A stretch of DNA of 64,000 nt. Source: an uncultured Roseivirgaceae bacterium. GTDB lineage: Bacteria > Bacteroidota > Bacteroidia > Cytophagales > Cyclobacteriaceae. The notes below the pieces were generated by a model that saw only the letters and a program-made list of their open reading frames with translations, made no database searches and was not told the origin of the DNA. The position numbers were made by a program, and so were the translations under genes. Below, one piece after another: positions 1,032 to 22,489 of the stretch; within the stretch, counting starts at the first letter, position 1; every line of letters starts with the position of its first letter. The DNA lies in assembly GCA_964350505.1 (NCBI GenBank), contig CAYGKL010000001.1:13675-77674 (forward strand), written 5' to 3'.

Positions 1032-1123
1032 TACCAATCATCGACAAATAGCTACCAGTTATCGATGAATTCGTACCCGTCATCGAAATGGTAAAAAAGG
1101 TGTTCATATTTTTCCAATTTTTG
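1032..1123 (+). promoter_or_regulatory. Repeat-type promoter P1: three 21-bp-period direct repeats plus -7-like box
   Basis: TACCAATCATCGA (1032), TACCAGTTATCGA (1053), TACCCGTCATCGA (1074). Cores at 1038/1059/1080; AATTTTTG at 1116, 36 bp after the last core. Confidence 0.7.
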
Positions 1124-1233
1124 AATCAGATCAATGATTAAACCAGATGATAATCAATAGGTTATGTCGGATTTCTTAAGATCTAAGATACTTAGGGTGT
1201 ACCAATGTATCATAAAAAATGTTTTGGTTGAGG

Positions 1234-1263
1234 GCCATCCGGACGGGATGGCTTTTTCTTTTT
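1234..1263 (+). terminator. Intrinsic terminator
   Basis: Stem GCCATCC(1234-1240)/GGATGGC(1246-1252), loop GGACG, followed by TTTTTCTTTTT. Confidence 0.75.
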
Positions 1264-1320
1264 ATGGCCTCTTAGAATAGTGCCTTTGTCAGATGCTATG
1301 AATTAGTGTCTATTATAACA

Positions 1321-1411
1321 ATCACTTATCCTTTAGGAACTTCCTTTTATCGATTAAAAAAATCCATTCATCGTTTTAACAGCATGAGTCTCTAAAATCA
1401 ACCGAGATTTG
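1321..1411 (+). promoter_or_regulatory. Repeat-type promoter P2 (receiver/LruC operon)
   Basis: Cores TTATCC 1326, TTATCG 1347, TCATCG 1368 (21-bp period); GAGATTTG at 1404 (+36); ATG at 1425. Confidence 0.7.
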
Positions 1412-1424
1412 AAGAAAAAAAAAC

Positions 1425-4038: not shown

Positions 4039-4129
4039 TCTCCCCATCTTCCCTCTCCTTTCATTCATCTTCAATTCTTGTTCAATCGTCTAATAAACCA
4101 CTTCGAGGCCTTTAAAGGGACTACTTTTG
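4039..4129 (+). promoter_or_regulatory. Repeat-type promoter P3 (EPS operon start)
   Basis: Cores CCATCT 4044, TCATCT 4065, TCGTCT 4086; consensus -7 box TACTTTTG at 4122 (+36). Confidence 0.7.
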
Positions 4130-4151: not shown

Positions 4152-4910
4152 GTGAATAAGAGAACAACAACAATCGTCAAAAGAGCATTCGATATTGCCT
4201 TCGCTGGCACGCTTATTTTGCTTATTAGCCCTATACTGATTTTAGTGTCTATAGCAATCCGCTTAGACTCTAAAGGTCCTATTTTCTATTATTCATACAG
4301 AGTGGGGCAAAACTATAAGATTTTCAAGTTCTACAAGTTCAGGTCGATGCGCACGGATGCAGACAAATTAGTAGATAATCTAAAACACCTGAATCAATAC
4401 GGTGCTGATATTAAAAATGAGCTGGAAGAATTTGAATTAACTAGACACACCATTGCCTATCATGCGAACGATCCAATCATGATCCGCGATGAAAAATATG
4501 CCCAGGTACAACACTTTGATAATCACAAACAACAAGACAATAGCAATTCATTTGTGAAGTTCGTTAACGACCCAAGAATTACAAGAATCGGAAAGCTGAT
4601 TAGAAATAGTAGCATCGATGAATTGCCTCAACTCTTTAACATTCTAAAAGGCGATATGTCAGTAGTTGGCAACAGACCTCTCCCTCTTTACGAAGCAGAG
4701 AAACTAACTACCGATGATCGTGTGGGTCGTTTTTTAGGCCCAGCAGGTCTTACAGGTCTTTGGCAAGTAACAGAACGTGGCAAGGACAATGTGGATCCTG
4801 AAAACCGCGTAAAGCTTGATATTGAGTATGCAGAAAACCATAGCCTTTGGATGGATTTGAAAATTCTAGTCAAAACTCCAATCGCAGCCTTTCAACATGA
4901 AAACGTATAA
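4152..4910 (+). CDS. Priming polyprenyl-phosphate sugar transferase (WcaJ/Bac_transf family)
   Basis: KRAFDI, DSKGPIFY, KFRSM, DPRITRIG...SIDELPQLFNILKGDMSVVGNRP and GLTGLWQV motifs; internal insertion of about 70 aa. Confidence 0.92.
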   Translation: MNKRTTTIVKRAFDIAFAGTLILLISPILILVSIAIRLDSKGPIFYYSYRVGQNYKIFKFYKFRSMRTDADKLVDNLKHLNQYGADIKNELEEFELTRHTIAYHANDPIMIRDEKYAQVQHFDNHKQQDNSNSFVKFVNDPRITRIGKLIRNSSIDELPQLFNILKGDMSVVGNRPLPLYEAEKLTTDDRVGRFLGPAGLTGLWQVTERGKDNVDPENRVKLDIEYAENHSLWMDLKILVKTPIAAFQHENV

Positions 4911-4913
4911 GTT

Positions 4914-6074
4914 ATGAAAAGGCTAATTCAACAATTAACCAGACCGAATTCTGGTCACAAATACCTTCCATTTGTCGATGGTATAAGATTCATAGCCATC
5001 ATGCCAGTGGTGTTATTACATGCCAATGAACGCTTTTTAAGGTATGTCTATGGCGAAGAAAACTTATCAGGCATTGGTGATCAAATGAATTACATCATTA
5101 GCCGTGGCGCTATTGGTGTAATGATTTTCTTCGCTCTGAGTGGTTTTGTTTTAGCACTTCCCTTTGCCAAAGGCACTACAAACTTCAGTTATAAAACTTA
5201 TTTCAGCCGTAGGTTAGAAAGGCTAGAGCCTCCCTACATCTTCTGGATGAGCCTTTTTGCTGTTATTCTATTCTTTCAATCCGGAATTGGAATCGCAGAA
5301 ATGGCAGGTCATTATTTCAGCAGCATTTTCTATCTACATAATATTGTCTATAGCGACTTCCCAATCATTAACCCTGTGGCTTGGTCGTTAGAAGTAGAAA
5401 TTCAGTATTACCTGATGGCACCATTTATAGCCATCACATATTTCAATCAAAAAGATGAATTGACAAGAAGGTTAGTACTTAGCTTATTGCTACTCTTTTT
5501 CATTGTTTATCAGCATGTTCTTGGCTTTCAATTTCAGCCCTTTAGAGCATCTATTTTAGGTCAGCTTCAGCATTTCCTTATTGGTCTTTTAGCGGCCGAT
5601 TTGTACACGCACAGCAAGAACTGGTCTTCAAAAAGGACTTATTTATGGGATATTATTGGGCTAATTTCTATCCCCGTAATGATGTTCACCTGGACAGACG
5701 ATCTAGAAAAAGCTTTACTCTTTTCCCCCGCTCTTTTGAGCTTCTTTATCAGCACATTTAAAGGTAGAATCATCCCTCAAATTCTATCTTATAAATGGAT
5801 TCCAGTGATTGGTGGAATGTGTTACACCATATACCTTACCCACTTACCTTTGCTAGAATTAATGTATTCACTCATCGGTAAAATCGGTTACTCAACGACA
5901 TATCTATCAGGTCTATCGATAAGTCTAATTCTTACCCTCCCAATCATCTTACTTAGTAGTATAATCTTTTATCGGGTCATTGAAAGACCTTTCATGAAGA
6001 AAAATGGAATGAGTCAGATCATTGATAAACTCAGAACTCTAACCGGTAGAAGATTAGCTAAAACAGAAAGATAA
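4914..6074 (+). CDS. Acyltransferase family 3 (membrane O-acyltransferase)
   Basis: DGIRFIA, FFALSGF, RRLERL, WSLEVEIQYY and YTIYLTH motifs; multiple TM segments. Confidence 0.9.
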   Translation: MKRLIQQLTRPNSGHKYLPFVDGIRFIAIMPVVLLHANERFLRYVYGEENLSGIGDQMNYIISRGAIGVMIFFALSGFVLALPFAKGTTNFSYKTYFSRRLERLEPPYIFWMSLFAVILFFQSGIGIAEMAGHYFSSIFYLHNIVYSDFPIINPVAWSLEVEIQYYLMAPFIAITYFNQKDELTRRLVLSLLLLFFIVYQHVLGFQFQPFRASILGQLQHFLIGLLAADLYTHSKNWSSKRTYLWDIIGLISIPVMMFTWTDDLEKALLFSPALLSFFISTFKGRIIPQILSYKWIPVIGGMCYTIYLTHLPLLELMYSLIGKIGYSTTYLSGLSISLILTLPIILLSSIIFYRVIERPFMKKNGMSQIIDKLRTLTGRRLAKTER

Positions 6075-6075
6075 C

Positions 6076-6792
6076 ATGAAACGATTCTTACTTACCATCG
6101 GCTGCTTAATCTCCTTCAACCTAGCTAGTAAAGCTCAAGTAGAGGTGCAAGGCTTAAGTATTGAAAACCTGAGACCAGTTGAAGAGCTTGTGACCATTGC
6201 CATCGAGCGTTCATCTGATATTAAAGCATTAAATGTATCTCAACTTCAAAAAGATCAGGAAATAGCTATCGACAAAAAGAAGTGGTTACAACATTTATCT
6301 CTAGCCGCTGGCGTCAATTACGGAAATGGTATTGTGGCCGACCAACTTACAGGAGATCAAGTTGGAACTTCCCTCACCTATTTAGCCAGACAAAATGTAA
6401 CCTATAATATAGGTTTTAACATCAGACTCCCTTTCACCGAAGTGAGCTCAAGAAAAAACGTCATCAAGATCAAGTCTTTAGAAATTGAAAAACTAGACCA
6501 TCTAAAGACTAGCCAAGAAGACGTGCTGAGAAAAGAAATCATTCAAGTTTATTCTAATCTCAAGCATTTTATCACTTCAATTGAAGTCCAGTCGGAAGTA
6601 GTAGAATCAAATGAAATGGCGCTAACCATTGCAGAAGGGTACTTCAAAGCAGGCAAAATTGGAATGGAACAATACAGAATGGCAGTTGAATCTCGGTACT
6701 CCTCAAAACTGGAGTTTGAAAAGGCTAAAAATGAAGCATGGTTAGCCTATAACACATTGAAAGCTATTGTTGGAGAAGAAATTTTGAAATAA
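6076..6792 (+). CDS. TolC/OEP-family outer-membrane protein with a single OEP repeat
   Basis: Signal peptide; helix, two amphipathic beta-strands (LSLAAGVNYG, YNIGFNIRLPF), long helices, YFKAGKI motif; only 238 aa. Confidence 0.7.
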   Translation: MKRFLLTIGCLISFNLASKAQVEVQGLSIENLRPVEELVTIAIERSSDIKALNVSQLQKDQEIAIDKKKWLQHLSLAAGVNYGNGIVADQLTGDQVGTSLTYLARQNVTYNIGFNIRLPFTEVSSRKNVIKIKSLEIEKLDHLKTSQEDVLRKEIIQVYSNLKHFITSIEVQSEVVESNEMALTIAEGYFKAGKIGMEQYRMAVESRYSSKLEFEKAKNEAWLAYNTLKAIVGEEILK

Positions 6793-6795
6793 GAC

Positions 6796-8859
6796 ATGAC
6801 TATCATAGAAATCATCAGGTTACTTGCTCGTTACTTTCACTTCATTGCAGGAACTGCCATTCTATTGGCCTTCCTGGTAATCTACAGCACAAAGGATAGC
6901 AAGAAAGAGTATTCGACTCACACGTTACTTAACACTGGTCTTATTTCAGGTTATAGTATTGAAAGCAATTCAAGCGGAAGAATTGATTATGCCAAAACCA
7001 ATAATGAGCTAGAAAACCTTATTAACATAGCTACTGCTTACGAGACCAATAAAGAGCTTTCAGCACGTTTAATGGCCCACTTGCTCATTGCACAAAGGGA
7101 CAATAAACTGAAATTACTTCCAGATAACTTGTCTGACTTTGAACAAACACTCCAACACTTAGAAATCAACATTACTAATCAAGACTCAGAAATATCTGTT
7201 TATCAAAAACTTGTAAACATCCGTGAAGAAGATCAATTCAATGAAGTCTATCTAATTGCCAACTCGAAGAATCAATTTTTTGGCATTGAACAGTTAGAGA
7301 ACATTACCGTGATTAGAGAAGGCAGTAGTGACATGATACGCATGGAATACTCCTCTTTCGATCCTTACTTAACCCAAAAAACATTGGAGTTACTGACCGA
7401 CATTTTCATGTCTAAGCAAACCACTATCAAAGAAGGTCAGAGCGACTCAGTAATCGAATTCTTTGAATCATCTGTGGAGAAGTCATCCATGAGATTGAAG
7501 TCGGCAGAGGATCAATTACTGAATTTCAGAGTAAACAACCAAATAATTAACTACTATGAGCAAACTCGCTTTATATCAGGCAATAAAGAAGAGCTAGACA
7601 AACAATATCAAGATGAATTAAAAATTCAAGCTGGTGCTAAATCTGCCTTAAATAAAATTGAATTAGAGGTATCTGATAAGGGAATATTATCGAGCCTTCA
7701 ATCAAGGTTAGCCGATAATACAGGAATCATTTCAAAATATTCTACCGAATTAGCAACGCTAGAACTGACCACAGATTCTATTCCTAGTTCTGCATTAATC
7801 ATTCAAAAGTCATTATTGGAATCAAATATTGATTCATTGAAGCGTCAGATGACAAACATCGCTGATGAGATGCTATTTGCTTACCAAACACCAGAGGGAA
7901 TTGAAACCAAAGATTTACTTACTCAATGGCTCAATTACACTATTGTAAAAGAGGAATCGTCTGCTAAACTATCAGTTATGAAGACCAGGCAGGCTGAATA
8001 TGAGAAAATTTACGATCGCTATGCTCCTCTTGGCTCTACCCTCAAAAGACTTGAAAGAGAAATTGATGTAGCCGAAAGAGAATACCTTGAGAACTTACAT
8101 AGTTTCAATCAGGCCAGACTTCATAAATACAGTATGATGATGTCATCGAATATTAAAGTGATTGATGCTCCATACTACCCAGTTAAGCCTGAAAAGTCTA
8201 AACGCATGATGATGGTGATTCTAGCTTTTATGGTGGGTATCATTTTACCAACCAGTATAATCATTGCGGTAGAGCTAATGGATAGCACACTTAAAAACCC
8301 TGAACATGCTTGCCTTCAAACAGGCCTTAATCTAGGCGGTTTACTACCTAAGGTAAACCCTAAAATGAGTAAGAAAATCAACCTAGAGGCTTTGAATAAG
8401 CAAGCATTAAACCTTTTTATCCAAGAACTAAGGGCCAATGCAAAAGGATCGAAACGTCCGAAAAGAATCATGCTTTTTAGCCCAGAAAATGGCGAAGGAA
8501 AAACTTACCTCAAAGAAGAACTAAACAAGCATTTTAGCTTTCTTTCAGAGGGAGAAAATCCAGAATTCACCTTCCTAGAACTGCAACCTATTCTTCATAA
8601 CCCTTATACAGAAGAGCAACTAGCAGAAGGCGACATCCATGTACTTGTAGTTCGTGCCAATAGAAAATGGACCGCTTCAGACAAACACGCCTTAAAGGTT
8701 TACAAAAAGATTGCGGGTAAGAAGCCCTTCCTATTCTTGAATGCTGTAACAACAGAAGTAATGGAAGAAGTGATTGGAGAAATACCAAAGAAAAGAAGCT
8801 GGTTGAGAAGCCATGTTAGGCAAATTTTAGTTCACGGTTTCAAACCTTCAACCATATGA
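6796..8859 (+). CDS. GumC/Wzc-like polysaccharide co-polymerase with degenerate BY-kinase tail
   Basis: Two TM segments flanking a long coiled-coil periplasmic region; VIDAPYYPVKP motif before TM2; Walker A-like SPENGEGKT. Confidence 0.8.
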   Translation: MTIIEIIRLLARYFHFIAGTAILLAFLVIYSTKDSKKEYSTHTLLNTGLISGYSIESNSSGRIDYAKTNNELENLINIATAYETNKELSARLMAHLLIAQRDNKLKLLPDNLSDFEQTLQHLEINITNQDSEISVYQKLVNIREEDQFNEVYLIANSKNQFFGIEQLENITVIREGSSDMIRMEYSSFDPYLTQKTLELLTDIFMSKQTTIKEGQSDSVIEFFESSVEKSSMRLKSAEDQLLNFRVNNQIINYYEQTRFISGNKEELDKQYQDELKIQAGAKSALNKIELEVSDKGILSSLQSRLADNTGIISKYSTELATLELTTDSIPSSALIIQKSLLESNIDSLKRQMTNIADEMLFAYQTPEGIETKDLLTQWLNYTIVKEESSAKLSVMKTRQAEYEKIYDRYAPLGSTLKRLEREIDVAEREYLENLHSFNQARLHKYSMMMSSNIKVIDAPYYPVKPEKSKRMMMVILAFMVGIILPTSIIIAVELMDSTLKNPEHACLQTGLNLGGLLPKVNPKMSKKINLEALNKQALNLFIQELRANAKGSKRPKRIMLFSPENGEGKTYLKEELNKHFSFLSEGENPEFTFLELQPILHNPYTEEQLAEGDIHVLVVRANRKWTASDKHALKVYKKIAGKKPFLFLNAVTTEVMEEVIGEIPKKRSWLRSHVRQILVHGFKPSTI

Positions 8860-9983
8860 AAAAGACCATAGTATGCCATAGCTTCCCTGCATGGGACACC
8901 CCTTATATTAAATCAACCATTGAGCTTCTTAAACAGCTGAGTAAAGACCACAGGGTGATCATGATTGACTATCACTACACCATTAAAGACTTGTTTTTCA
9001 ATAAGATAAGTCCTGTAAAACAAATTTCAGGTGTTGGGTCACGCGTCAGAATGATACAAACAGAATATGGTCAAATCGAGGTGATATCCACTCCTCCTGT
9101 AATTCCCATTAACTGGATTAAGAACAAAAAACTATTCCATTTCATGGCTAAAGTTAATAGTCGTTTGATCGGTAGAACCATTAAAAAACAGCTAACCAAG
9201 CTCGGTGTTCAAGACTATACATTGATCAATGCTTTTAACCCCATTTATGGCTTTTTCATGAACGACATTTTCAAGCCTCTAAAGACCATCTATTACTGCT
9301 ATGACGAAATAGCAGCTACTGAATGGTCGGGTAAGCATGGAGCCACTTATGAGCAGGCTTACATTCCAATGGTAGATGAGGTAATCTGCACGAGCAGCAC
9401 ATTAAAAGCTCACAAACAAGAATTTGCCAAAGAAGTGAAATTCATACCAAATGGAGTTAATCTGGACATCTTCTTGGCTACAGATAAAGAGATTACCAAT
9501 GGCAAAACGATAGGCTATATTGGAGCAATTGACAACAGAATTGACTTTGAATTAATAGACTACTGCGCTAAAACCTTGAGCGATCATCACTTTCAGTTTT
9601 TCGGCCCTATAAAGACAGAAATACCTATCCTGCCTGCCAATGTAACATTTCTGGGCTCGGTAGATCAAAGCAAGCTGCCTGAGAAAATTGAGCAGTTCGA
9701 TGTTTGTCTTATCCCATTTGTGAAGACTCAATTGACTGAAGCCATTTACCCGCTGAAGATCAACGAATACCTCGCCATGGGTAAGCCAGTAGTTACCACC
9801 CACTTTTCAGATCTTTCAGACTTTAAAAAAGTGGCTGAAATTGCAGAGAGTAAAGAAGATTTCTTGAAGGCTATTAAACGTTCTATCCGGTACAACTCCA
9901 GATTAAAAGTTCAAGACCGAATTGAGTTTGCAAAAGGAAACTCTTGGGAGAATCGTGCTCAAGAGTTTGCCGAAGCGATTTAG
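8856..9983 (+). CDS. GT-B glycosyltransferase (TuaH-like)
   Basis: IYYCYDE, IPNGV, GYIGAI and PLKINEYLAMGKPVV motifs. Confidence 0.85.
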   Translation: MKKTIVCHSFPAWDTPYIKSTIELLKQLSKDHRVIMIDYHYTIKDLFFNKISPVKQISGVGSRVRMIQTEYGQIEVISTPPVIPINWIKNKKLFHFMAKVNSRLIGRTIKKQLTKLGVQDYTLINAFNPIYGFFMNDIFKPLKTIYYCYDEIAATEWSGKHGATYEQAYIPMVDEVICTSSTLKAHKQEFAKEVKFIPNGVNLDIFLATDKEITNGKTIGYIGAIDNRIDFELIDYCAKTLSDHHFQFFGPIKTEIPILPANVTFLGSVDQSKLPEKIEQFDVCLIPFVKTQLTEAIYPLKINEYLAMGKPVVTTHFSDLSDFKKVAEIAESKEDFLKAIKRSIRYNSRLKVQDRIEFAKGNSWENRAQEFAEAI

Positions 9984-10002
9984 GATATAACTTATCCCAC
10001 AA

Positions 10003-10072
10003 GCAACTCATCGAAGCTCACAGTTCATTCACCGTTTTTAAAAGAATCACTTAGGCAAACAGTGCATCTTTG
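10003..10072 (+). promoter_or_regulatory. Repeat-type promoter P4 (internal, Wzy-like gene)
   Basis: Cores TCATCG 10008 and TCACCG 10029; CATCTTTG at 10065 (+36). ATG at 10078 would imply an almost leaderless mRNA. Confidence 0.6.
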
Positions 10073-10077
10073 TATCA

Positions 10078-11559
10078 ATGAAAACCAAGAGCGTAATTAA
10101 TTCTGAACCAACAGGAGCCGCCATTTTGGCCAGTCCACAAGGCTGGTTGATTATGATTGCTCTTTTAGGGTTTAGCTTTTTGGTAATTAGCTTTATTGGT
10201 TTGGCAGGTGGAATGCTGCTCATTGGTTTGCCTATCGGCATGGTGGTGTTGGCCATGATTTGGAACAAACCAAAGCTTGGTGTTTGGGGAAGTCTTATCA
10301 TGGGCTTCTTTTCAGCTGGAATTACGCGTTATGTACCAGGGCCTTGGGGCTTAACGGTAGACATTCTTTTAGCCTTATCTTGGCTAAGTGTTATCCTTAA
10401 CAAATCAATTCAAATCAAGTGGAAAGAAGCTAAAAACCCGATCGTAGCACTGACAACTTTCTGGATGCTTTATCTTGTTTTAGAGATTGTTAACCCTAGC
10501 GGTAATGGTCTTGTGGCTTGGTTTTATGCCATGCGAGGTATTGGCTTCTATCAAGCACTCACAGTTCCACTAATCTTTCTTCTTTTCAGAAAACAAAAAG
10601 ACACAGAGCAATTCTTTAATGCGCTCATCTACTTCTCTTTAATTGGTACTATCTGGGGCTTTAAACAGCAAATATTTGGAACAGATGGTGCTGAAGATCA
10701 TTGGCTTTATGCTGAGGAACATCACGAAGAACATATTCTTCATGGCGTTCTAAGGGTGTTTTCATTCTATTCAGATGCTGGGAGTTTTGGTGCATCTCAA
10801 GCCATGATGTCATTAATGTCGGGCATACTTTTTATGGGGCCTTACAAAGGCATTAAGAAATTCAAGTATCTCATTTTCGCCATTATCTTTCTTATGGGCT
10901 TTGGCATTTCTGGAACTAGAGGAGCTTTGGCAGTGCCTTTGGCCGGAGGGATTGCCTATCTTATTCTCATCAAGAACTTCAGAATACTAATTAGCGGTTT
11001 CAGTGGCATGGTCTTAGTTTTTGTGATCCTTAAGTATACCTTCCTCTTTCAGGGAGTTGAACAGGTAAGGCGCATGAGAACAGCCTTGGACCCAAATAAC
11101 AAGTCGTTGAGCGTGCGTTATGATAATCAGAAAATATTTGCTCGCTATTTATCTAACAAACCTTTTGGAGCAGGTATAGGCACAGCTGGTTTCTGGGGGG
11201 CTAGGTTCAACCCTGATTCACTTTTAGCCAATACAGCTACAGATAGTTGGTTCGTAAAAATCTGGGTGGAAACAGGCCCTGTGGGGCTTACTATTCATAT
11301 AGCATTTCTAGGTTTTATTCTTGGCTATGGAGGACAGAAAATCATGAGGATGCGTGACCCTAAAAACCGAACACAGGCCTCTGCACTTTATGCCATGTTT
11401 GCCGGAGCCATTCTTGCCAGTTATGGCAACCAGGTACTCATTCAAATGCCAACGGGTATCATTCTCAATTTTGCAATCCCTTATATTTTTCTAATTGCCG
11501 ATAGAGATAAGAAGCAATGGCTGAAGTCTATCAAGAAGCCCAAGGAGTTGAGCGTTTAG
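10078..11559 (+). CDS. O-antigen ligase/Wzy-family polymerase
   Basis: About 12 TM segments; ISGTRGA, RVFSFYSDA, KPFGAGIG and DSWFVKIWVETGPVG (Wzy_C-like) motifs. Confidence 0.8.
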   Translation: MKTKSVINSEPTGAAILASPQGWLIMIALLGFSFLVISFIGLAGGMLLIGLPIGMVVLAMIWNKPKLGVWGSLIMGFFSAGITRYVPGPWGLTVDILLALSWLSVILNKSIQIKWKEAKNPIVALTTFWMLYLVLEIVNPSGNGLVAWFYAMRGIGFYQALTVPLIFLLFRKQKDTEQFFNALIYFSLIGTIWGFKQQIFGTDGAEDHWLYAEEHHEEHILHGVLRVFSFYSDAGSFGASQAMMSLMSGILFMGPYKGIKKFKYLIFAIIFLMGFGISGTRGALAVPLAGGIAYLILIKNFRILISGFSGMVLVFVILKYTFLFQGVEQVRRMRTALDPNNKSLSVRYDNQKIFARYLSNKPFGAGIGTAGFWGARFNPDSLLANTATDSWFVKIWVETGPVGLTIHIAFLGFILGYGGQKIMRMRDPKNRTQASALYAMFAGAILASYGNQVLIQMPTGIILNFAIPYIFLIADRDKKQWLKSIKKPKELSV

Positions 11560-12877: not shown

Positions 12878-13038
12878 TGTTTGAAGGAATGCCTTGGCCA
12901 GTCGTTATACCCATTGCCATTTTAGTAATGGTCTATAGCGTCACACTTTCTAATAGAGAAGAAAAAGTGGCCATAGTGAAGCGAATAAAGCAATTAAAAA
13001 AGCAAAAAAGTAAACTGAAATCTAATGGACTCAAATAG
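12877..13038 (+). CDS. Small single-pass membrane protein (53 aa), absent from the ORF track
   Basis: TAATG overlap with the GT2 stop; MFEGMPWPVVIPIAILVMVYSVTLSNREEKVAIVKRIKQLKKQKSKLKSNGLK; fills the gap up to the GT4 gene. Confidence 0.6.
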   Translation: MFEGMPWPVVIPIAILVMVYSVTLSNREEKVAIVKRIKQLKKQKSKLKSNGLK

Positions 13039-14182
13039 AACGCTTAAGATATTACTAATCTCTAAAACTTTGCCCTGGCAGTTTAAGGGAGGTATTCAAA
13101 CCCATACTTGGGAGTTGGCCAAGAGTCTTGTAGAGATAGGCCATTCAGTAACAATTCTAAATGGAGGACCTTTTAGATCAAAGACAACCACATTTCTGAA
13201 AGATGGTATTGAAGTGGTCCAAATCCCCTTCTTTCCAGGTAGGTATTTGAAACCTGTTTCACTTTTAGCAGAAGAGTTTTCTTTTAACTGGTCAGTCCTT
13301 ACATGGACGATTAAAAATCATCAACCATTTGATATAATTCATTCTCAAGGGCGCAGTGGTTATTTATTGAGCTTTTTCAAACCGATTAAAAACCGCTTGG
13401 TGAACACTGTGCATGGTTTAATAGATATTGAAAGTCAGCATTGCAAATGGTATAGCCTGAACGCTAATCTGCATAACGCATTTACCAAAAAAGTTGAAAA
13501 CAGATTATATAACAAGGCGGCAAGACTTGTTGCCGTGAGTACTGCTTTAAAGGGAGAACTATCAGAAAAGAGGTTTGTACAACAACCGATTCAAGTGATA
13601 TCTAATGGAGTCAATACGTTCCCTAAAACTCTATCACTTAAGAATAAGGCAGCAAGGTTTCTCTTTATAGGTCGCTTGCATCCAATTAAAGGAATTGCCA
13701 AGATGATTGAACAAATGGACTTGGCGAATGAAAACATTAGCTTAGATATAGTAGGCAATGGAAGTGAAAGAGACGCCATAGTAAGAATTATTGAAGCAAA
13801 AGGCCTACAGAAAAAAGTGAAGCTCTTGGGCGAACTTACTAGCGAAGAGATACACAACATACTCCCACACTACACTGCCCTTGTATTGCCAAGCCTGTAT
13901 GAAACTCAAGGCATTGTATTGCTAGAAGCCAACTCAGAAGGCGTTCCTGTAATAGCATCAGATTTACCTGCCATTCGTGAAACGATTACTCACGGAGAAA
14001 ACGGATTGCTTTGCCCGACAAATAACCCTGTAGCCTTTATTGAGGCAATGAATTACATGGCTAACCATAGACAAGAAGCAGAAATGATGGGATCTATAGG
14101 CCGAATAAAAGTAGAAGCAGAATATAGCTGGAACAAAATAGCTGTGAAAACAGAGTCACTTTATTACTCTATCGCATCATGA
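13025..14182 (+). CDS. GT4 glycosyltransferase
   Basis: GGIQTH, ISNG, FIGRLHPIKG and LPSLYETQGIVLLEA...G.PVIAS motifs. Confidence 0.9.
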   Translation: MDSNRTLKILLISKTLPWQFKGGIQTHTWELAKSLVEIGHSVTILNGGPFRSKTTTFLKDGIEVVQIPFFPGRYLKPVSLLAEEFSFNWSVLTWTIKNHQPFDIIHSQGRSGYLLSFFKPIKNRLVNTVHGLIDIESQHCKWYSLNANLHNAFTKKVENRLYNKAARLVAVSTALKGELSEKRFVQQPIQVISNGVNTFPKTLSLKNKAARFLFIGRLHPIKGIAKMIEQMDLANENISLDIVGNGSERDAIVRIIEAKGLQKKVKLLGELTSEEIHNILPHYTALVLPSLYETQGIVLLEANSEGVPVIASDLPAIRETITHGENGLLCPTNNPVAFIEAMNYMANHRQEAEMMGSIGRIKVEAEYSWNKIAVKTESLYYSIAS

Positions 14183-15471
14183 AAAGAATGCCAAATATCC
14201 GCATAGGAAATACGGTTTACTCCTTCACAGGACAAATTAGTTTTCTACTAACTAACTTTCTCCTTTTCATATATTTAGCCAAAAACTACGACCAGACCAC
14301 CTTTGGCCATTGGGCCATTTTTATCACTACCATTTCCATCTTAGATGGTATGCGACAAGGCTTTACACAAAATGGTCTAGCCAGACTGATTATAAAGCAT
14401 CCAGGAGACAGAGAAATTAGAAGTACTAGCCTACTGCTGAACTATGCCATTGTAATCATTACAAGTATCATTCTTAAGGTCTTAGCTGTACTATCTGATG
14501 AGTCTATCGGTATCCTATACAGCAACGGCTACAAAATATTGATTGTGCTGGCTACCATTCAGTACCTCAATACAGTTTATCAGGCCAATTACCAATTCAG
14601 ACAATATTTCATCATCAACCTGATCTATTTGATCTCATTTGTAAGTGCCATGGCATTTCAAATTTTGGTAATCGGAAAACCTGAGTTAACAACGATCATT
14701 AATCTTATGCTCATCAGTATAGTACCCAACATTGCTTTAGCTATTTATAGAAAGCAGTTCTATATTTTAAAACCAAGAAAGGAGACTGCACTGGCACTGA
14801 TACACTTCGGAAAATACTCTTCTGGAACCAACTTGATGTCCCTTCTTTTTCAACGGGTTGACCTGATCATGATCAATTATTTCTTAGACCCTACGTCTGT
14901 TGCCATTTTCCATTTTGCCACTAAGATTATCAACTATGCAGAGCTTCCGCTTCAAGCATTGTCCCAAGTCATTTATCCTAAAATAGCGACCAGTCACCTG
15001 AGCAATAATGGCACTGAACTTAATAAAACTTATGGTGCCTCCATATTATGGATATTAGCATTCATAATCCCAATGAGCTTAACAGTGATCATATTTAATA
15101 AAACAATTATAACCCTAATAGGATCAGTAAGTTACTTGCCTGCATCTTCAATAATATTGGTGCTGTGTATTGCCACTTTTTTTAAGCCATGGGGACGAGT
15201 TTTCGGACTTACTTTAGACGCAGTAGGAAAACCTAAAGTGAACTTCTATATGCTAGCTTTTAGCCTTATTGTTAATGTAATAATGAATTGGGTTTTAATA
15301 CCGGTTTATGGGATCAATGGCGCGGCAATAGCTACATCATTGAGCATAATTATCACCATCATTATCGGTCAGTTTAATATCAGAAGGACACTCAAGTTTA
15401 ACCCTGTACATGAAGTATTGGAAGCATTCAAAACAATGTATCATTTAAAAATTAGCAAAAAATGGAATTAA
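14179..15471 (+). CDS. Wzx-type oligosaccharide flippase
   Basis: About 12 TM segments; DLIMINYFL and YGINGAAIAT MOP-family motifs. Confidence 0.85.
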   Translation: MKRMPNIRIGNTVYSFTGQISFLLTNFLLFIYLAKNYDQTTFGHWAIFITTISILDGMRQGFTQNGLARLIIKHPGDREIRSTSLLLNYAIVIITSIILKVLAVLSDESIGILYSNGYKILIVLATIQYLNTVYQANYQFRQYFIINLIYLISFVSAMAFQILVIGKPELTTIINLMLISIVPNIALAIYRKQFYILKPRKETALALIHFGKYSSGTNLMSLLFQRVDLIMINYFLDPTSVAIFHFATKIINYAELPLQALSQVIYPKIATSHLSNNGTELNKTYGASILWILAFIIPMSLTVIIFNKTIITLIGSVSYLPASSIILVLCIATFFKPWGRVFGLTLDAVGKPKVNFYMLAFSLIVNVIMNWVLIPVYGINGAAIATSLSIIITIIIGQFNIRRTLKFNPVHEVLEAFKTMYHLKISKKWN

Positions 15472-16277
15472 CATTCGGTTCAGCCCAGATATATACCAGT
15501 GAGAGAATGAAAAACTCTCCTGTTTTAGCCAAAATGTTTCATAAAGTATTTGGTTATACTAACGTTGGCAATTATGCTCGTTTCACGGTATTTAAAGAAT
15601 TAGTCAAAAGCATTTCACTGAAAGAGGATGCCAAAATCTTAGACTTAGGCACCGGATATGGTGAGTACAGCTTTAGTCTTGCAGAGGCTTTGCCACATAG
15701 CGAAGTTCATAGCCTAGATATTGACAGAGACCGTGTTAAATCTGTAGATACGGCTATCGAAAAAAGTGGAATTCAGAATATTCATACCCACTGCACATTT
15801 ACAGAACAACTTGAGGAAAAGGATTTCGATTTTGTATTCTCAGTCGATGTATTCGAACACATTGCCCCTGAAGACATGCCTTTTAAAGCTGTTTATAAAA
15901 GGCTAAGACCAGGTGGTAAATTCATGGTTAAGATGCCTTATGTTACACAAAGGACAATTCTTCCAGAAAATTGGTTTGAAGACCATCATGAATGGTTGGA
16001 AGAAGAACACATAGGTCAGGTCTACGACCTTCATAACCTTAAGAGGCGTTTTGTTGAAGAAGGCTTTAGGGTAATTCATTCTTCGTATTCAGATGGTTGG
16101 TTATCTAGATTAGGTTGGGAAGTAGCCTATTTAGGCAAGAAAGTAGGAATAATAGGTCAGCTTTTAACCTTACCCTTTGCTAAGCTGTGTATCAAATTAG
16201 ATCGTGCAATGCATCTCAATCAATGGGGAAATGCCATTCAAGTAATCGGTGTAAAAGAAGAATCATGTCGCCCTTAG
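15462..16277 (+). CDS. Class I SAM-dependent methyltransferase
   Basis: ILDLGTGYG motif I; FDFVFSVDVFEHI; LRPGG. Confidence 0.85.
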   Translation: MELTFGSAQIYTSERMKNSPVLAKMFHKVFGYTNVGNYARFTVFKELVKSISLKEDAKILDLGTGYGEYSFSLAEALPHSEVHSLDIDRDRVKSVDTAIEKSGIQNIHTHCTFTEQLEEKDFDFVFSVDVFEHIAPEDMPFKAVYKRLRPGGKFMVKMPYVTQRTILPENWFEDHHEWLEEEHIGQVYDLHNLKRRFVEEGFRVIHSSYSDGWLSRLGWEVAYLGKKVGIIGQLLTLPFAKLCIKLDRAMHLNQWGNAIQVIGVKEESCRP

Positions 16278-17143
16278 TCTCAATCATAACAGTTAACTAC
16301 AAACAGGCTCAAGTCACTTGTGAACTCCTTGAGTCAATAGTAAAACTCAATTACTCCAACTTAGAAGTAATTGTAGTAGACAATGCTCAGGAAGGTGATG
16401 ATTCACAACTATACCAAGCCGTTCTTCCATCTGTAAAAGTGTTGAATGCCAAAGAAAATTTAGGCTTTGCAGGTGGCAACAATTTGGGTATTCAACAAGC
16501 AACTGGAGACTTTCTGTTTCTTTTGAACAATGATACAGAACTAGACAATGGCGTGATTGAGTCTTTGCTAAGTAGGTTTACCGAACCAACTATTGCAGCA
16601 GCCTCTCCTATACTCAGGTATTTTGATGAACCGAATAATATTCAATTCGCAGGATTCACCAAAATAAGCTCATTGACAGGCAGAAACGAATTATTAAAAC
16701 AACCTCAGCAATTTACACCTTATGAAACTCCCTACTTTCATGGGGCTGCGGTGATGCTTCGCAAAAGCATTATCGCTGAATGTGGCTTGATGCCAGAGGA
16801 GTTTTTCCTCTACTATGAAGAGTTGGAGTGGTCTAGAAAAATTACAAAATGTGGCTATCAACTTTTAATAGATCCACAAGTTCATGTACTCCATAAAGAG
16901 TCTGTTTCAACTGGAAAAAACAGTCCATTGAAGCTCTATTATCAAACCAGAAATAGAGTTCATTTTATGCGGGCTAAAGACTCTTCGAATTCGTTGCTCT
17001 TTATGCTTTTCTTCCTGTTTATATCAATACCAAAGGGTTTACTCAAATACGGATTACATAGAGAATGGAAGCATTTGAGCGCCTTTTTACAGGCTATTAA
17101 TGATGCGGTGTTCTTCAAGAGATTTGGTTTCAGACCAATTTAA
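16265..17143 (+). CDS. GT2 glycosyltransferase (WbbL/rhamnosyltransferase-like)
   Basis: SIITVNY, VVDN, NLGFAGGNN, LLNND and FFLYYEE motifs. ATG at 16265 is preferred over the track start 16187. Confidence 0.88.
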   Translation: MSPLVSIITVNYKQAQVTCELLESIVKLNYSNLEVIVVDNAQEGDDSQLYQAVLPSVKVLNAKENLGFAGGNNLGIQQATGDFLFLLNNDTELDNGVIESLLSRFTEPTIAAASPILRYFDEPNNIQFAGFTKISSLTGRNELLKQPQQFTPYETPYFHGAAVMLRKSIIAECGLMPEEFFLYYEELEWSRKITKCGYQLLIDPQVHVLHKESVSTGKNSPLKLYYQTRNRVHFMRAKDSSNSLLFMLFFLFISIPKGLLKYGLHREWKHLSAFLQAINDAVFFKRFGFRPI

Positions 17144-17177
17144 TTCATTCAACGAGCAAGAAGGTATGTTCATCGAA
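17144..17177 (+). promoter_or_regulatory. Partial repeat site P6 upstream of the last GT2
   Basis: Cores TCAACG 17149 and TCATCG 17170 (21 bp apart), but no -7 box at +36. Confidence 0.35.
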
Positions 17178-17227
17178 ATTAGAACCCTTATTCAATACAA
17201 ATCGAGTTACTTCAAATAAAAATTAAC

Positions 17228-18406
17228 GTGATGGAAATTTTGTTCTGGACCTCCCTATTTATCATTTTCTATGTATTCGTTGGCTATGGTATTATCATAA
17301 GCCTTCTGGCTAAATTCAAGGATAAGAAGGCTCTTTTAGAGCTGTCTAATGAAGATTTACCTATGATCAGTTTCGTAATTGCAGCCTATAACGAGGAAGA
17401 GATTATCGAAGAAAAGATTCAAAACACTTTAAACCTCAATTACCCAAAAGAGAAACTCCAATTGAAAATAGTAACTGACGGATCTACTGACAGTACTAAT
17501 GCTATAGTGAGTAAATACCCCGAGGTGGAGCTCTGTTTTGAACCTCAAAGAGCGGGAAAAATAGCTGCTGTGAACCGTATAATGCCTGAGATTGAAACTC
17601 CATTTACTGTCTTTTCAGATGCTAATGTTATGATCAATAAAGATGGTATCAGAAATATGATCAGCCATTTCCAGAACAACAGGGTTGGCGCTGTTTCTGG
17701 AGAGAAAACGGTAATGAGTAATGATGCAGATGGCGCAAGTAGCGCAGGTGAGGGATTTTATTGGAAATATGAATCCTATCTGAAGAAGAAGGATGCCGAA
17801 TGGAACACCTTGGTTGGGTCGGCTGGAGAACTTTTTGCCATCAGAACACATCTTTATGAGGCTATTGAAACCAATACACTTATAGAAGATTTTGTATTGA
17901 CTATGAAACTTTCGGCAAAAGGTCATCAAGTGGCCTATGAGCCAAATGCCTTAGCTATGGAAACTGGTTCAGCAAGTATTGAAGAAGAAACAAAACGCAA
18001 GGTGAGAATCTCTGCTGGTGGAATTCAAGCTGTAATTAAGCTTTGGCCACTCTTAAATTTCATGAAATATGGTAAACTCACTTTTCAATATATTTCACAT
18101 CGAGTTCTGAGGTGGACATTAATGCCTTTGGCATTGATTGCAGTGTTTGTGAGCCCTTTCTTTCTTATGGACAATGCTTGGTTCTATAAGATAATCCTAA
18201 GCCTAGAATTAGTCTTCGGATCCTTAGCAATCGCTGGTTATCTAATCAGAAATAAGGAAACCAAGAATAAAGTGCTATATATTCCGTACTACTTTCTTTA
18301 CATGCATTACTGTGTAATACTTGGCTGGATAAAATACTTCAGGGGTAAGCAGCAAGTAACCTGGGAAAAAGCGAAAAGAGCAACTATGCCTCTACAGCAA
18401 GTTTAA
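17228..18406 (+). CDS. GT2 glycosyltransferase (IcaA/PgaC-like processive family)
   Basis: IAAYNEE, VTDGSTD, GKIAA, FSDAN, IED and RKVRI motifs; N- and C-terminal TMs. Confidence 0.88.
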   Translation: MMEILFWTSLFIIFYVFVGYGIIISLLAKFKDKKALLELSNEDLPMISFVIAAYNEEEIIEEKIQNTLNLNYPKEKLQLKIVTDGSTDSTNAIVSKYPEVELCFEPQRAGKIAAVNRIMPEIETPFTVFSDANVMINKDGIRNMISHFQNNRVGAVSGEKTVMSNDADGASSAGEGFYWKYESYLKKKDAEWNTLVGSAGELFAIRTHLYEAIETNTLIEDFVLTMKLSAKGHQVAYEPNALAMETGSASIEEETKRKVRISAGGIQAVIKLWPLLNFMKYGKLTFQYISHRVLRWTLMPLALIAVFVSPFFLMDNAWFYKIILSLELVFGSLAIAGYLIRNKETKNKVLYIPYYFLYMHYCVILGWIKYFRGKQQVTWEKAKRATMPLQQV

Positions 18407-19120
18407 TTTCTTTATCAAAGCTTCCTTATTGGCTCTGGAAATTGGAATTACCTTATGGTCGATCAATAAATTGGATTCTTCAATATCTATGATTTTAGAA
18501 ATATTGATGACATAAGAGCGATGCACCTTCACAAAGTTATGATCGCCCAACCGCTCCTCTACCCTTTTCATGGTAGTATGAACAATATAACCTTTCTCTA
18601 GGGTCTTGAAAAGTGCATAATCTCCTTTGGCTTCGATGTATAGGATGTCATCGATTTTAACTTTGATCAACTTCGAGTCCACCTTCAAGAAAATACTGTC
18701 TTGAATAACTCTAGACATTCCCTGACTTTCTTTGGCATCCTTAAAACGCTCAAAAGCACTCATCGCAACCTCTATAGCCGCATTAATGTCTTTTACACCA
18801 TAAGGCTTAACTAGATAACCAAATGGACCTTTTGATTTGGCCCTTGCAATGGTGTCGTTATCGGCAAATGCTGTTGTGAAAATAAAAGGTATTTGAAAGT
18901 TTTGATTGATAAGGTCGGCCAAGTCTACCCCATCTATATCTCCGCCAATTTGTATATCAAGTAAGGCCAAGTCGGGTAAAGTCTCATTGCAGATTGCAAT
19001 AGCTTTTTCGGCATCATCAGCTACACCAATAATTTCATGTTTTAGAATGCCTAGAATGTCTTGTACACTCTCTGCAATCATTGGATCATCTTCAACGATG
19101 AGTATTTTCAGTCGGCTCAT
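18392..19120 (-). CDS. LytTR-family response regulator
   Basis: Intact receiver (VEDD, PDLALLD, FTTA, KPY) plus LytTR domain (ILYIEAKGDY, FVKVHRSYVIN, IPISR). Confidence 0.93.
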   Translation of the reverse strand: MSRLKILIVEDDPMIAESVQDILGILKHEIIGVADDAEKAIAICNETLPDLALLDIQIGGDIDGVDLADLINQNFQIPFIFTTAFADNDTIARAKSKGPFGYLVKPYGVKDINAAIEVAMSAFERFKDAKESQGMSRVIQDSIFLKVDSKLIKVKIDDILYIEAKGDYALFKTLEKGYIVHTTMKRVEERLGDHNFVKVHRSYVINISKIIDIEESNLLIDHKVIPISRANKEALIKKLNLL

Positions 19121-19173
19121 TAACTCTTGTTTGTCCGAATCTACTAAATCATTCGATTATTTTACAAATAAGC

Positions 19174-22100
19174 TTATGAAATTGGTAACTCAATGATAAA
19201 CTCAGAGCCAATGTTTTCGGTGCTCTCTACGGTTATTGTTCCACCGTGCATTTCTGTGAACTCTTTAACAATAGATAAGCCCAATCCAGAACCTTGGATG
19301 TTACTCACATTGGTTGCTCTATAGAAAGACCCAAATAGTCCTTTTAAGTCTTTTTGAGGTATCCCTATACCATGATCTTTAAATGTCAAACTCATTCTAT
19401 CTAACTGATTAAATGAGAGGGATATTTCAGGAGCTTCTTTGCCTTTAGAATATTTAAGTGCATTAGAGATGAGGTTAGAAACCACATGGTCCATGAGCTG
19501 CTCATCAATGGCAACCTCTTGTGGAACACCATTTACATGTAAATCGATAACGCGATGCTCCAAATCAGTTTCTGAAGACTTATTAATCTGTCGTTGAATA
19601 AATTGTATAAAATCTACAGGCTTTTTATTGATTTGAATTTTGCCAGACTCTATTCTACCTAGCATCAGAATATCATTCATCAAAGAAGTAACTCGATTTA
19701 GATCACTGTCTATTCTGTCAATGTACTTCTTGTATTTAGCAAAATGGTCTGGAAGATCATCTTCTAGTTGATAACTAATCAGATCAGTGTTCTGCTTAAT
19801 GGTAGTAAGAGGCGTTCTGAACTCATGTGAAGTCATTGCTACGAAACGAGATTTTAGCTCATTTAATTCACGCTCTTTATTCAGAGCCTTTTCCATCTCC
19901 TCTTGAACCCGCTTTTGAATGGTAATATCACTTAGAAAAGCAGTAAATGTATGTCTACCTTTACTTTCTACCGGAATAATGGCCATCTCTATTGGAAACT
20001 CTTCACCCGATTTCCTCATAGCTGTAATCTCTATTTTTTGATTAAGCACTGGCCCTCTGCCAGTAGCTAAAAAATGCTTCATCCCTTGATCATGTGCCTT
20101 ATGATGCTTAGTAGGGATAATTGTTTCGGTTAGGGACTTTCCAATGGCCTCTTGTGCCGAATAACCAAAAATAGCCTCAGCTTGTATATTCCATTCCGTC
20201 ACAATACCTCTTTCATCTATAGTTATTACTGCGTCAATAGCATTGTGAAGAATCTTTCTGAGCTTTTGCTCACTTTCTGTCAATTCTCTTTCAGCTTTTT
20301 CTTGTTTTTTCTTGGCAATGGCATTCTTTAAACGGTTAGAGGCAAGGTTAGCTATTGTTGTAAGCGTGTTCAGATGGCTTTCATTAAAAAAGCCCTTTTC
20401 TTTATGCTCAGAATCAATAACTCCAATCACTTGACCGTCTGCTATGATTGGAACAGAAATCTCTGAATATCTGAAAGCATCATCTTCCAAATAGCGAGTA
20501 TCTTTACTAGTATCGTTCACTATTTCAGCTTTCCCTGATTTAGCTACAGCACCTACGATACCTTCACCTAAAGGAATAAATACCGGATCTTTTATTTGTC
20601 TATTTTTTGCTTGTTTAGGTCCATAAGCGGCTATTTGCTCAAGCACTTCCTTGTCGTTGTCAAGGATGTAAATGACACAGTCTTCATAGCCGAATTTATC
20701 AATTACATTTTCAGCTATTTCCCAAGCAATTTCGCCAATGGAATCATCCACAAGTAGTTTAGTCACGAAATCATTGATAGCACCCAAATGCTCATAACTT
20801 CTTTCTAATTCTTGATTCTTTTGAGCTAATATCTCTTGGTCAGATTTAAGACTCTTTTGATTTTCTGAGAGGGTTATTGTATAACCTATCCATTTAGCAA
20901 ATAAGCTGATGAATTCGATGTCATATCCATCAAAATTATGCTCCCTTGGCTTAGAGGATGAAAAATTAACAGTACCACGCCTTTTACCATTTACATCATA
21001 GGAAACACCCAAATAGGTCTCAATTCCAAATAAATGATGGGAAGGGTGATCTGTGTGGCTTGAGAGAGAAACATTACTCATATGAATAATGTCATTCTGT
21101 TTTAAAACTAACTCACAAAAAGTATCACCTAACCTAAACTGATCGCCAATATTTATAGTCGCGTTTGGATCCTTTGATACAAAATTTTTGACGGTGTAAG
21201 TTTCATCTTTGATCTCACTTATAATCGCTAAATCAAGTCCAAGGTATTTCTTAGCTAATTTTAAGCCTTGTGAAATCTGGTCTTCAGAGGAAAGGCTAAG
21301 ATTTGAGGTAACATAATTGAGTGCTTCAATACCATTTTTGTACTTGTTGAGGCGATCTTTGGTGACTTTTAGTTCCTCTTCATCATTGATTCTTTCAGTG
21401 ATATCGACATGGATACCAATACTCCCTCTAATGGTTCCATCTATATTATAAATTGGGGCACCACTAATTACTGCCCATCTTACAGTACCATCTTTTTGCC
21501 GAATGGGTATTTCATAAACTCCTTTTCCACCGCGCTGCCGTTGTTTATGCTCTTTTTTGAGCACTTCAAGGCCATGATCATTAGTTAGTAATTCAGAGGC
21601 CACCTTGCCGATCAACTCTTCTTTAGCGTAACCAGAAACCTTGGTCATAGCGTCATTCGCATAGACAATTTTCTCGTCAAGATCTACTTCCATAAGTCCA
21701 AACTGAAGGTTCTGAATAATACCTCTATATTTCTCTTCAGATTGTTCGAGCTCAGAACGGTTATGATAGCTCTCTGTAATATCTCTTCCTACTCCTAAAA
21801 AGCCGATTATATTTAGATCGTTTTCCAAGAGTTGAACACTGAGACCAATCCAAACCTTGTCACCCAAGCTTGTAACAATTGGCACTTCCTGAAAAGTAGA
21901 TTTAACTCTTTTTTTCAGTTGACTTGCATAGAATTGCTGGCTTGACTCCTGATAATCAGGATGTATTAACTCTAGATAAGACTTACCTAAAATCTCTTCC
22001 TCCTTATATCCAGTAATCTGAAGAGTCTTTGGATTAACATAAGTGAATTTACCTGCTGAATCACATTCATAAATAATCTCATTAGCTGCCTCTACAATGA

Positions 22101-22383
22101 GCTTATACTTTTCGTTATCGGGACTATTTTGTGCCATATAGCAATCTTCAGTAGAAAAGAAGATAGTATAAAATTTATTGTAAAATGTAACTTTATACGA
22201 GACTTCACAATCAAAGAAATGGATATCTATAAGTCCCGCTACTTTACCGGTGGTCTGGTAACTCTTCAAAATTTTGACAATAGCTCGATTATTTTCATCC
22301 TTTAAATAGGACAAAAACCGACTTGATAGCAGAGAAGATGCGACTATATCGCCCTCTGCAGTTACCTTTACACTTGAATTCAT
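19174..22383 (-). CDS. Cytoplasmic PAS-PAS-GAF-GAF-PAS sensor histidine kinase
   Basis: H-box TSHEFRTPLT, N-box NLISNALKYS, DHGIGIP and GSGLGLSI G-boxes; three PAS/PAC and two GAF-like segments; no TM. ATG 22383 is preferred because the track TTG at 22407 coincides with the -7-like box. Confidence 0.9.
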   Translation of the reverse strand: MNSSVKVTAEGDIVASSLLSSRFLSYLKDENNRAIVKILKSYQTTGKVAGLIDIHFFDCEVSYKVTFYNKFYTIFFSTEDCYMAQNSPDNEKYKLIVEAANEIIYECDSAGKFTYVNPKTLQITGYKEEEILGKSYLELIHPDYQESSQQFYASQLKKRVKSTFQEVPIVTSLGDKVWIGLSVQLLENDLNIIGFLGVGRDITESYHNRSELEQSEEKYRGIIQNLQFGLMEVDLDEKIVYANDAMTKVSGYAKEELIGKVASELLTNDHGLEVLKKEHKQRQRGGKGVYEIPIRQKDGTVRWAVISGAPIYNIDGTIRGSIGIHVDITERINDEEELKVTKDRLNKYKNGIEALNYVTSNLSLSSEDQISQGLKLAKKYLGLDLAIISEIKDETYTVKNFVSKDPNATINIGDQFRLGDTFCELVLKQNDIIHMSNVSLSSHTDHPSHHLFGIETYLGVSYDVNGKRRGTVNFSSSKPREHNFDGYDIEFISLFAKWIGYTITLSENQKSLKSDQEILAQKNQELERSYEHLGAINDFVTKLLVDDSIGEIAWEIAENVIDKFGYEDCVIYILDNDKEVLEQIAAYGPKQAKNRQIKDPVFIPLGEGIVGAVAKSGKAEIVNDTSKDTRYLEDDAFRYSEISVPIIADGQVIGVIDSEHKEKGFFNESHLNTLTTIANLASNRLKNAIAKKKQEKAERELTESEQKLRKILHNAIDAVITIDERGIVTEWNIQAEAIFGYSAQEAIGKSLTETIIPTKHHKAHDQGMKHFLATGRGPVLNQKIEITAMRKSGEEFPIEMAIIPVESKGRHTFTAFLSDITIQKRVQEEMEKALNKERELNELKSRFVAMTSHEFRTPLTTIKQNTDLISYQLEDDLPDHFAKYKKYIDRIDSDLNRVTSLMNDILMLGRIESGKIQINKKPVDFIQFIQRQINKSSETDLEHRVIDLHVNGVPQEVAIDEQLMDHVVSNLISNALKYSKGKEAPEISLSFNQLDRMSLTFKDHGIGIPQKDLKGLFGSFYRATNVSNIQGSGLGLSIVKEFTEMHGGTITVESTENIGSEFIIELPIS

Positions 22384-22399
22384 TTGGCTTGAGATAGTG

Positions 22400-22489
22400 C
22401 AAAGCAAGCATTAATAACCATATGTGTGACTCAGATTCGTTGAATCGACAGAATGCTTCGATGAATGACAAAATCTTTCGATAAGCTGA
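22400..22489 (-). promoter_or_regulatory. Repeat-type promoter P7 (histidine kinase/LytTR operon)
   Basis: On the minus strand: cores TTATCG (starts 22484), TCATCG (22464), TCAACG (22443); TTGCTTTG starts at 22407, 36 bp after the last core. Confidence 0.62.

Follow-up and report, generated by a model that had tools for sequence, protein, structure and literature searches.

The window analyzed here is a 64,000-nucleotide stretch of a contig from an uncultured Roseivirgaceae bacterium (GenBank assembly GCA_964350505.1, contig CAYGKL010000001.1, positions 13,675 to 77,674), and it contains a cassette for exopolysaccharide (EPS) synthesis together with a histidine kinase and a REC-LytTR response regulator. 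The promoters of this cassette share a precise, conserved, and testable cis-regulatory code made up of a 13-bp box, tandem copies of that box at a period of 20 to 21 bp, a 36-bp offset to a -7-like box, and no -33 element. The cassette regulator probably controls all cassette units as an activator through these box promoters, a reading drawn from sequence comparison. Such control would link a cytoplasmic PAS/GAF sensor kinase to Wzx/Wzy exopolysaccharide production in marine biofilm bacteria. The prediction is directly testable, as the same cassette is present in cultivated strains of Roseivirga and Algoriphagus, among them Roseivirga spongicola UST030701-084, R. ehrenbergii KMM 6017, R. seohaensis SW-152, and Algoriphagus namhaensis.

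A preliminary description of this DNA had proposed six promoters, here called P1 to P6, at which T(C/T)ATCG repeats with a 21-bp period stand 36 bp before a -7 box. All 17 of the cores that it listed, as well as the six boxes, are found where it placed them. Strict fits to T[CT]ATCG account for 9 of the 17 cores (three at P1, two each at P2 and P6, one each at P4 and P5, and none at P3), and the others are the one-base variants TTATCC, TCATCT, CCATCT, TCGTCT, TCACCG, and TCAACG. The consensus is real, but it is just the 3' half of a wider 13-bp box, kYCAnTYATCGAA, in which position 11 is G or T. This box comes from 120 distinct units, nearly all of which have a C at core position +4. The strict hexamer fails at P3 and was dropped as the motif definition in favor of the 13-bp box, which the proximal unit of P3, TTCAATCGTCTAA, does fit; in orthologs this unit reads TCGTCT or TCATCT, again at +36. 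Sites contain two to four boxes as direct tandem copies, and most Roseivirga species have three or four copies at the kinase promoter, with the box in the form GTCAGTTATCGAA. The 21-bp period applies to nearly all steps between cores, the exception being the 20-bp step from 22484 to 22464. As 20 to 21 bp corresponds to two helical turns, the copies would lie on one face of the helix.

The offset from the start of the proximal core to the start of the -7-like box, an nAnnTTTG-like sequence, is 36 bp at all six sites. A -7 model built from 43 orthologous sites has T36, A37, and TTTG at 40-43, i.e., TAnnTTTG. The preliminary description had also seen no -33 TTTG, and this is borne out by a 28-nt spacer that lacks any conserved column across 54 promoters. 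Of 48 regions, only 3 have TTTG at +15 or +16, and the TTTG/TTG element that marks the -33 region of a Bacteroidota sigma-A promoter, about 19 bp 5' of the -7 box, is missing. Relative to the predicted transcription start site (TSS), the proximal box extends from about -53 to about -41, and those beyond it have their centers near -68 and -89, with the boxes ending just 5' of where a -33 element would stand.

The strongest test of significance used position weight matrices (PWMs) trained solely on orthologous loci of other genomes, with which both strands of the window (128 kb) were scanned for pairs of boxes, the second 20-22 bp 5' of the proximal one, combined with the -7 model at +34 to +45. 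Exactly the six claimed sites came out as the best architecture matches, scoring 30.3-37.6 bits, while 100 second-order-Markov simulated windows gave a mean maximum of 12.0 bits (sd 3.1, largest 21.5). A PWM scan with constrained spacing had been suggested as a check on the original claim, and it places the six sites far above simulated sequence. Simpler counts agree with this result. Counting both strands, the window has 82 instances of the strict hexamer, yet only 4 same-strand pairs are 20-22 bp apart, against about 0.16 expected from the counts, and all 4 fall at P1, P2, and P6. When a PWM was made from P1, P2, and P6 alone, P5 and then P4 were the best other composites in the 128 kb. A 5-mer autocorrelation that uses no PWM, run on 63 orthologous upstream regions, gave 107 at lag 20 and 91 at lag 21, compared with about 15 +/- 6 in shuffles, and there is a second harmonic at lags 40-41.

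All coordinates of the individual promoters are those of the window, and predicted TSSs were set by the sigma-A box lying at -12 to -5 (PMC9723704). On the plus strand, P1 (1033..1087, score 31.7) has three 13-bp boxes at a period of 21 bp, with cores TCATCG 1038, TTATCG 1059, and TCATCG 1080, followed at the 36-bp offset by the -7-like box AATTTTTG (1116..1123) and a predicted TSS near 1128. P2 (1321..1375, score 31.5) has three boxes with cores TTATCC 1326, TTATCG 1347, and TCATCG 1368, the -7 box GAGATTTG (1404..1411), and a predicted TSS near 1416; orthologs of this site are present in L065-L071, L193, and L194. The boxes of P3 (4039..4093, score 30.3) are degenerate, with cores CCATCT 4044, TCATCT 4065, and TCGTCT 4086; its -7 box is TACTTTTG (4122..4129) with a predicted TSS near 4134, and the proximal box and offset are kept in L014, L065-L068, L070, L193, and L194. 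P4 (10003..10036, score 36.1) has two boxes, with cores TCATCG 10008 and TCACCG 10029, and P5 (11592..11646, score 36.9) has three, with cores TCATCT 11597, TCATCG 11618, and TCATCT 11639; both have orthologs. The -7 box of P4 is CATCTTTG (10065..10072), which puts the predicted TSS near 10077, one base 5' of the wzy ATG at 10078, and that of P5 is TAGATTTG (11675..11682), with a predicted TSS near 11687. P6, on the minus strand (22436..22489, score 37.6), is the kinase promoter and has three boxes with cores TTATCG 22484, TCATCG 22464, and TCAACG 22443 at spacings of 20 and 21 bp, the -7-like box TTGCTTTG (22400..22407), and a predicted TSS near 22395. Three to four boxes are found at the P6 position in 13 other Roseivirga loci.

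All six proposed promoters stand, and one further, weaker site probably has to be added to them. This candidate seventh site (17144..17177, plus strand) has two boxes 21 bp apart, with cores TCAACG 17149 and TCATCG 17170, and is located 5' of a glycosyltransferase family 2 (GT2) gene (17228-18406). Its -7 box is poor and it scores 16.6 in the window, whereas the orthologous place in L001, L003, L004, and L009-L011 scores 23-34. It is probably a weaker seventh member that drives this last GT2 gene.

Conservation was followed outward from two genes: about 20 Roseivirga loci reached through the regulator gene share the cassette gene order, and LruC homologues added nine loci that contain the left half. 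The best relatives of the window proteins are in Roseivirga genomes, and the window DNA itself was found in metagenome DNA runs from biofilm, lake water, and macroalgae. Matches of at least 22 bits are present at the orthologous kinase (HK), wzy, glycosyltransferase (GT), Bac_transf, and receiver promoters of Roseivirga loci. Algoriphagus namhaensis, which belongs to another family, has the same cassette, with boxes at its kinase, wzy, Bac_transf, and receiver promoters and a regulator 72% identical to that of the window. The motif and its offset are therefore kept at orthologous promoters in both genera, as the preliminary description had proposed to check. In 28 of 48 orthologous regions with a box pair, TTTG starts exactly 40 bp after the first base of the proximal core; TTTA takes its place in most of the others, and almost no other offset occurs. 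Information across the 54 promoters is confined to the boxes and the -7 box, with none carried by the inter-box spacers or the -33 region. Weaker layouts adjoin regulators of 55-57% identity in Croceimicrobium (L018) and in the Bacteroidia genome L021, and no motif was found beside regulators of 40-48% identity. No match of at least 22 bits was found in the roughly 6.5 kb beyond the cassette on the kinase side of cassette-holding Roseivirga loci centered on the response regulator (RR), and the remaining 41 kb of the window likewise gave none that is comparable.

The protein most likely to read these boxes is the REC-LytTR regulator encoded on the minus strand at 18392..19120 (PF00072, 1.4e-20; PF04397, 1.2e-18), the only DNA-binding protein that Pfam finds in the cassette. 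Its translation contains the acidic pocket E10/D11/D12, the acceptor Asp55, and Lys105. The LytTR domain is 79-88% identical across Roseivirga and Algoriphagus, while identity in the linker between the domains falls to 33-57%, and beyond the closest relative the LytTR domain is better kept than the receiver domain. A PDB sequence search with the regulator matched the receiver domain alone and so offered no structural guide to DNA recognition. The strongest and most repeated sites precede the regulator's own operon, and P6 appears to be an autoregulatory site. LytTR regulators are reported to bind two repeats, each 9-11 nt long and 11-13 nt apart, with no consensus across the family (PMC4847170). 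The cassette box, with 9-13 informative nt, a period of 20-21 bp, and a place directly 5' of the core promoter, has this layout, which supports assignment of the sites to the binding architecture of LytTR response regulators. Likeness in sequence to known LytTR sites is taken as supportive and not as defining, given that the family has no common consensus.

The adjacent gene on the same strand (19174..22383) encodes a PAS/GAF/HisKA/HATPase histidine kinase (HisKA PF00512, HATPase_c) that is 50-70% identical among Roseivirga loci. Pfam gave no match to PF06580, the His_kinase type, and hydropathy reveals no hydrophobic or transmembrane segment, from which the kinase is taken to be soluble. The mechanically assigned start, TTG at 22407, falls inside the kinase's own -7 box. 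The true start is placed at the ATG at 22383, as the conserved N-terminus MNSSVKV that begins there matches MNPSVTV of L001. Kinase and regulator together form the P6 unit (22383-18392, minus strand), which is convergent with the EPS cluster.

From these components we infer a self-contained EPS cassette in which every unit would be read from an activator-dependent sigma-A promoter. The soluble PAS/GAF kinase would phosphorylate the adjacent LytTR regulator, which, as a dimer or higher oligomer, would then bind the boxes and recruit or position RNA polymerase. Bound to the tandem boxes, the regulator may take the place of the -33 element and so offset the defective upstream promoter element. 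The outputs predicted to be switched on are the EPS genes (through P3, P4, P5, and probably the site at 17149/17170), an operon for a receiver-only protein and LruC (P2), and a short RNA (P1). Activation of the kinase-regulator operon from P6 would add positive feedback.

Several points weigh against this reading. P3 is weak by sequence in the window, and the site at 17149 has no good -7 box. The scans covered 20-kb loci, so the restriction of the motif to the cassette holds locally, and no RNA runs holding the window sequence were found. The partner kinase is of the HisKA PAS/GAF type, unlike the LytS or AgrC type usual for LytTR regulators. Furthermore, Bacteroidota genomes usually encode many LytTR regulators, and for this reason a paralogue could be the binder.

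This last point leads to the alternative that survives best, in which the boxes are real but are bound by a regulator encoded elsewhere, either a LytTR paralogue or an unrelated factor, and the adjacent regulator controls something else. The link between protein and DNA does rest here on co-location and co-conservation, which leaves room for such a factor. We nevertheless consider it unlikely, as all Roseivirga loci and Algoriphagus have the sites ahead of the regulator's own operon, the cassette encodes no other DNA-binding protein, the box resembles proven LytTR sites, and the motif is not found beside more distant, paralogue-like regulators. Alternatively, the cassette regulator may bind the boxes and mainly repress or anti-activate, with the promoters firing without it. 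The sign of regulation is unreadable from sequence, and some LytTR proteins do repress, e.g., AgrA at bsaA (PMC4227749), but the geometry makes this decidedly improbable: all boxes are 5' of -41 and none overlaps a -7 box or start site, none of the promoters has a -33 element, which is typical of activator-dependent promoters, and the base-pair-exact distance to the -7 box fits contact with polymerase. The degeneracy of several cores and the strict hexamer in only 9 of 17 might also be explained by chance or by a repeat without regulatory function, e.g., a small mobile or REP-like element, but this reading is hardly credible and is effectively refuted by the autocorrelation, by scores never reached in the null simulations, by short boxes that are conserved while their spacers diverge, and by the fixed offset at orthologous promoters in two families.

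The predicted control of the cassette units by the LytTR regulator can be followed through the gene order. The preliminary description had assigned the promoters to the whole EPS locus, and sites do precede every EPS transcription unit as well as the kinase-regulator operon; P1, however, would not drive an EPS gene. The Wzx/Wzy-type EPS cluster as a whole spans 4152-18406 on the plus strand, with functions assigned here and below from Pfam. The P3 unit (4152..9983) contains a sugar transferase, an acyltransferase, an OEP, a GNVR chain-length protein, and a GT1, the P4 unit (10078..11559) a wzy-like polymerase, and the P5 unit (11699..17143) a GT2, a GT4, a flippase, a methyltransferase, and a second GT2. 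The last GT2 gene (17228-18406, plus strand) would be the unit of the site at 17149/17170.

Short 5' untranslated regions are typical of Bacteroidota. At wzy, the -7 TTTG is followed by 5 nt and then the ATG, both in the window (10065-10080) and in L001-L004, and on account of this spacing an essentially leaderless wzy mRNA is predicted. Leaderless mRNAs make up only about 5.5% in Flavobacterium psychrophilum (PMC9723704).

The P2 unit lies to the left of the EPS cluster on the plus strand and consists of the receiver-only protein (1425-1820) and an LruC/DUF4842 protein (1877-3904), with a terminator (3924-3950) that ends the predicted unit. In the receiver-only protein, Asn stands at the position of the CheY phospho-acceptor Asp57 and the acidic pair is replaced by Glu-His. 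L065 shares these changes, while the orthologs in L066-L071 retain the Asp, and the protein may be a pseudo-receiver in the window lineage. Two close relatives have an extra gene for a trypsin-like protease between LruC and Bac_transf (L193 2771-3571, L194 5165-6001) that has no box site of its own and is missing from the window.

Box pairs also occur within coding sequence, with cores at 5872/5892 and 14973/14994, and these were excluded from the regulon as they have no -7 box at +36. The boxes, about 21 bp apart, are at the 3' end of the acyltransferase gene (5867-5899) and in the flippase gene (14968-15001), the latter pair being kept in L001, L002, and L004. In the Algoriphagus locus L071 there is an architecture match at 13983, within the acyltransferase gene and 5' of OEP. 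These pairs could be internal sites or mere coding conservation.

P1 was expected to serve the EPS genes, and this was not borne out: it appears to drive no protein gene, and a short terminated RNA is predicted instead. The candidate non-coding transcript is about 135 nt long (1128..1262, plus strand) and has a strong intrinsic terminator at 1230-1256 with a T tail. A shorter terminated transcript is predicted from a homologous module in the Roseivirga locus L069 (6100-6250), where two boxes and TACATTTG are located between LruC and Bac_transf. The two transcripts are identical at 22 of 29 nt just 5' of the hairpin, a stretch that includes GTTTTGGTTGA, and the P1/L069 module is a candidate for a box-controlled small RNA. 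The module is absent from L065 and L194, and the L193 sequence begins too near the receiver gene to judge. Rfam returned sub-threshold matches only (GibS, with 22.8 bits where the gathering score is 115, as well as sroH and a ctRNA), which were rejected. The pattern ATCAT-N6-9-GTTTTGGTTGA gave at least 120 matches in metagenomes, with no boxes upstream among the matches listed, and was too unspecific to use. A small peptide at P1 is unlikely, since the window and L069 are alike in nucleotide sequence but differ in reading frame. A possible target of the RNA at 18899 within the regulator gene, an 11-nt near-complement, was also set aside, as 5 such matches against 2.0 expected is not significant.

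The cassette regulator would work in the manner of AlgR, AgrA, or YpdB. AlgR of Pseudomonas aeruginosa is close to it in makeup and in predicted function, as each combines REC and LytTR domains and AlgR controls an exopolysaccharide, alginate. The AlgR consensus from ChIP-seq is the 9-bp CCGTTCGTC, and a footprinted AlgR site reads CCGTTCATC (PMC4787818). The box core CCATTCATC matches the footprinted site at 8 of 9 positions, and the core of several orthologs, CCATTCGTC, differs from the ChIP-seq consensus at one position. AlgR sites are mostly single 9-mers, some of them far upstream, whereas the cassette has two to four tandem copies at 20-21 bp in a fixed position at -48, and the phylum and promoter type differ. 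The partner kinase of AlgR, AlgZ/FimS, is a membrane kinase, while the cassette kinase is a soluble PAS/GAF HisKA protein. With a kinase of this type, the cassette pair is neither a LytS/LytTR nor an AlgZ/AlgR pair.

Regulators of the AgrA, ComE, and PlnC type resemble the cassette regulator in promoter layout: their direct repeats recur about every 21 bp just 5' of suboptimal core promoters, and they autoregulate their own operon (PMC4227749, PMC4847170). The form of the box at the HK promoter, TCAGTTATC, has CAGTTA in common with the AgrA site ACAGTTAAG. AgrA has been described as making up for a defective promoter at agr P2 and P3, which have suboptimal spacers, and agr P3 drives a regulatory RNA (PMC4227749), much as cassette P1 precedes the predicted short terminated RNA. 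The cassette differs from these systems in having three to four boxes instead of two, EPS biosynthesis genes as targets, and the -7/-33 promoter type of Bacteroidota. There is no peptide pheromone, AgrB/AgrC-like gene, or membrane HPK10 kinase among the cassette open reading frames, and the cassette is not an Agr-type quorum-sensing locus. The E. coli LytS/LytTR regulators YpdB and BtsR bind a pair of direct repeats, each about 10 nt long and set 11-13 nt apart, in a sequential, cooperative manner (PMC4847170). They differ from the cassette in their single target promoter, membrane LytS-type kinase, and motif GGCATTTCAT.

Transcription activation in Bacteroidota is poorly understood, and our literature search, whose coverage is incomplete, found no LytTR regulon or binding motif in this phylum. 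The cassette sites would be a new instance of the LytTR direct-repeat activator sites well known from other phyla, apparently not described before in Bacteroidota. The Flavobacterium sigma-A box is TAnnTTTG at -12 to -5 (PMC9723704); the cassette promoters have a box of this sequence, predicted to lie at the same place, and differ from the standard Bacteroidota sigma-A promoter in the absence of the -33 element. Tentatively, the cassette may be a portable, positively autoregulated EPS switch in which a LytTR regulator replaces the -33 contact of sigma-A, representing a distinct class of activator-dependent Bacteroidota promoter. In some lineages, the same boxes might also drive a small regulatory RNA (P1 and L069), as AgrA drives RNAIII.

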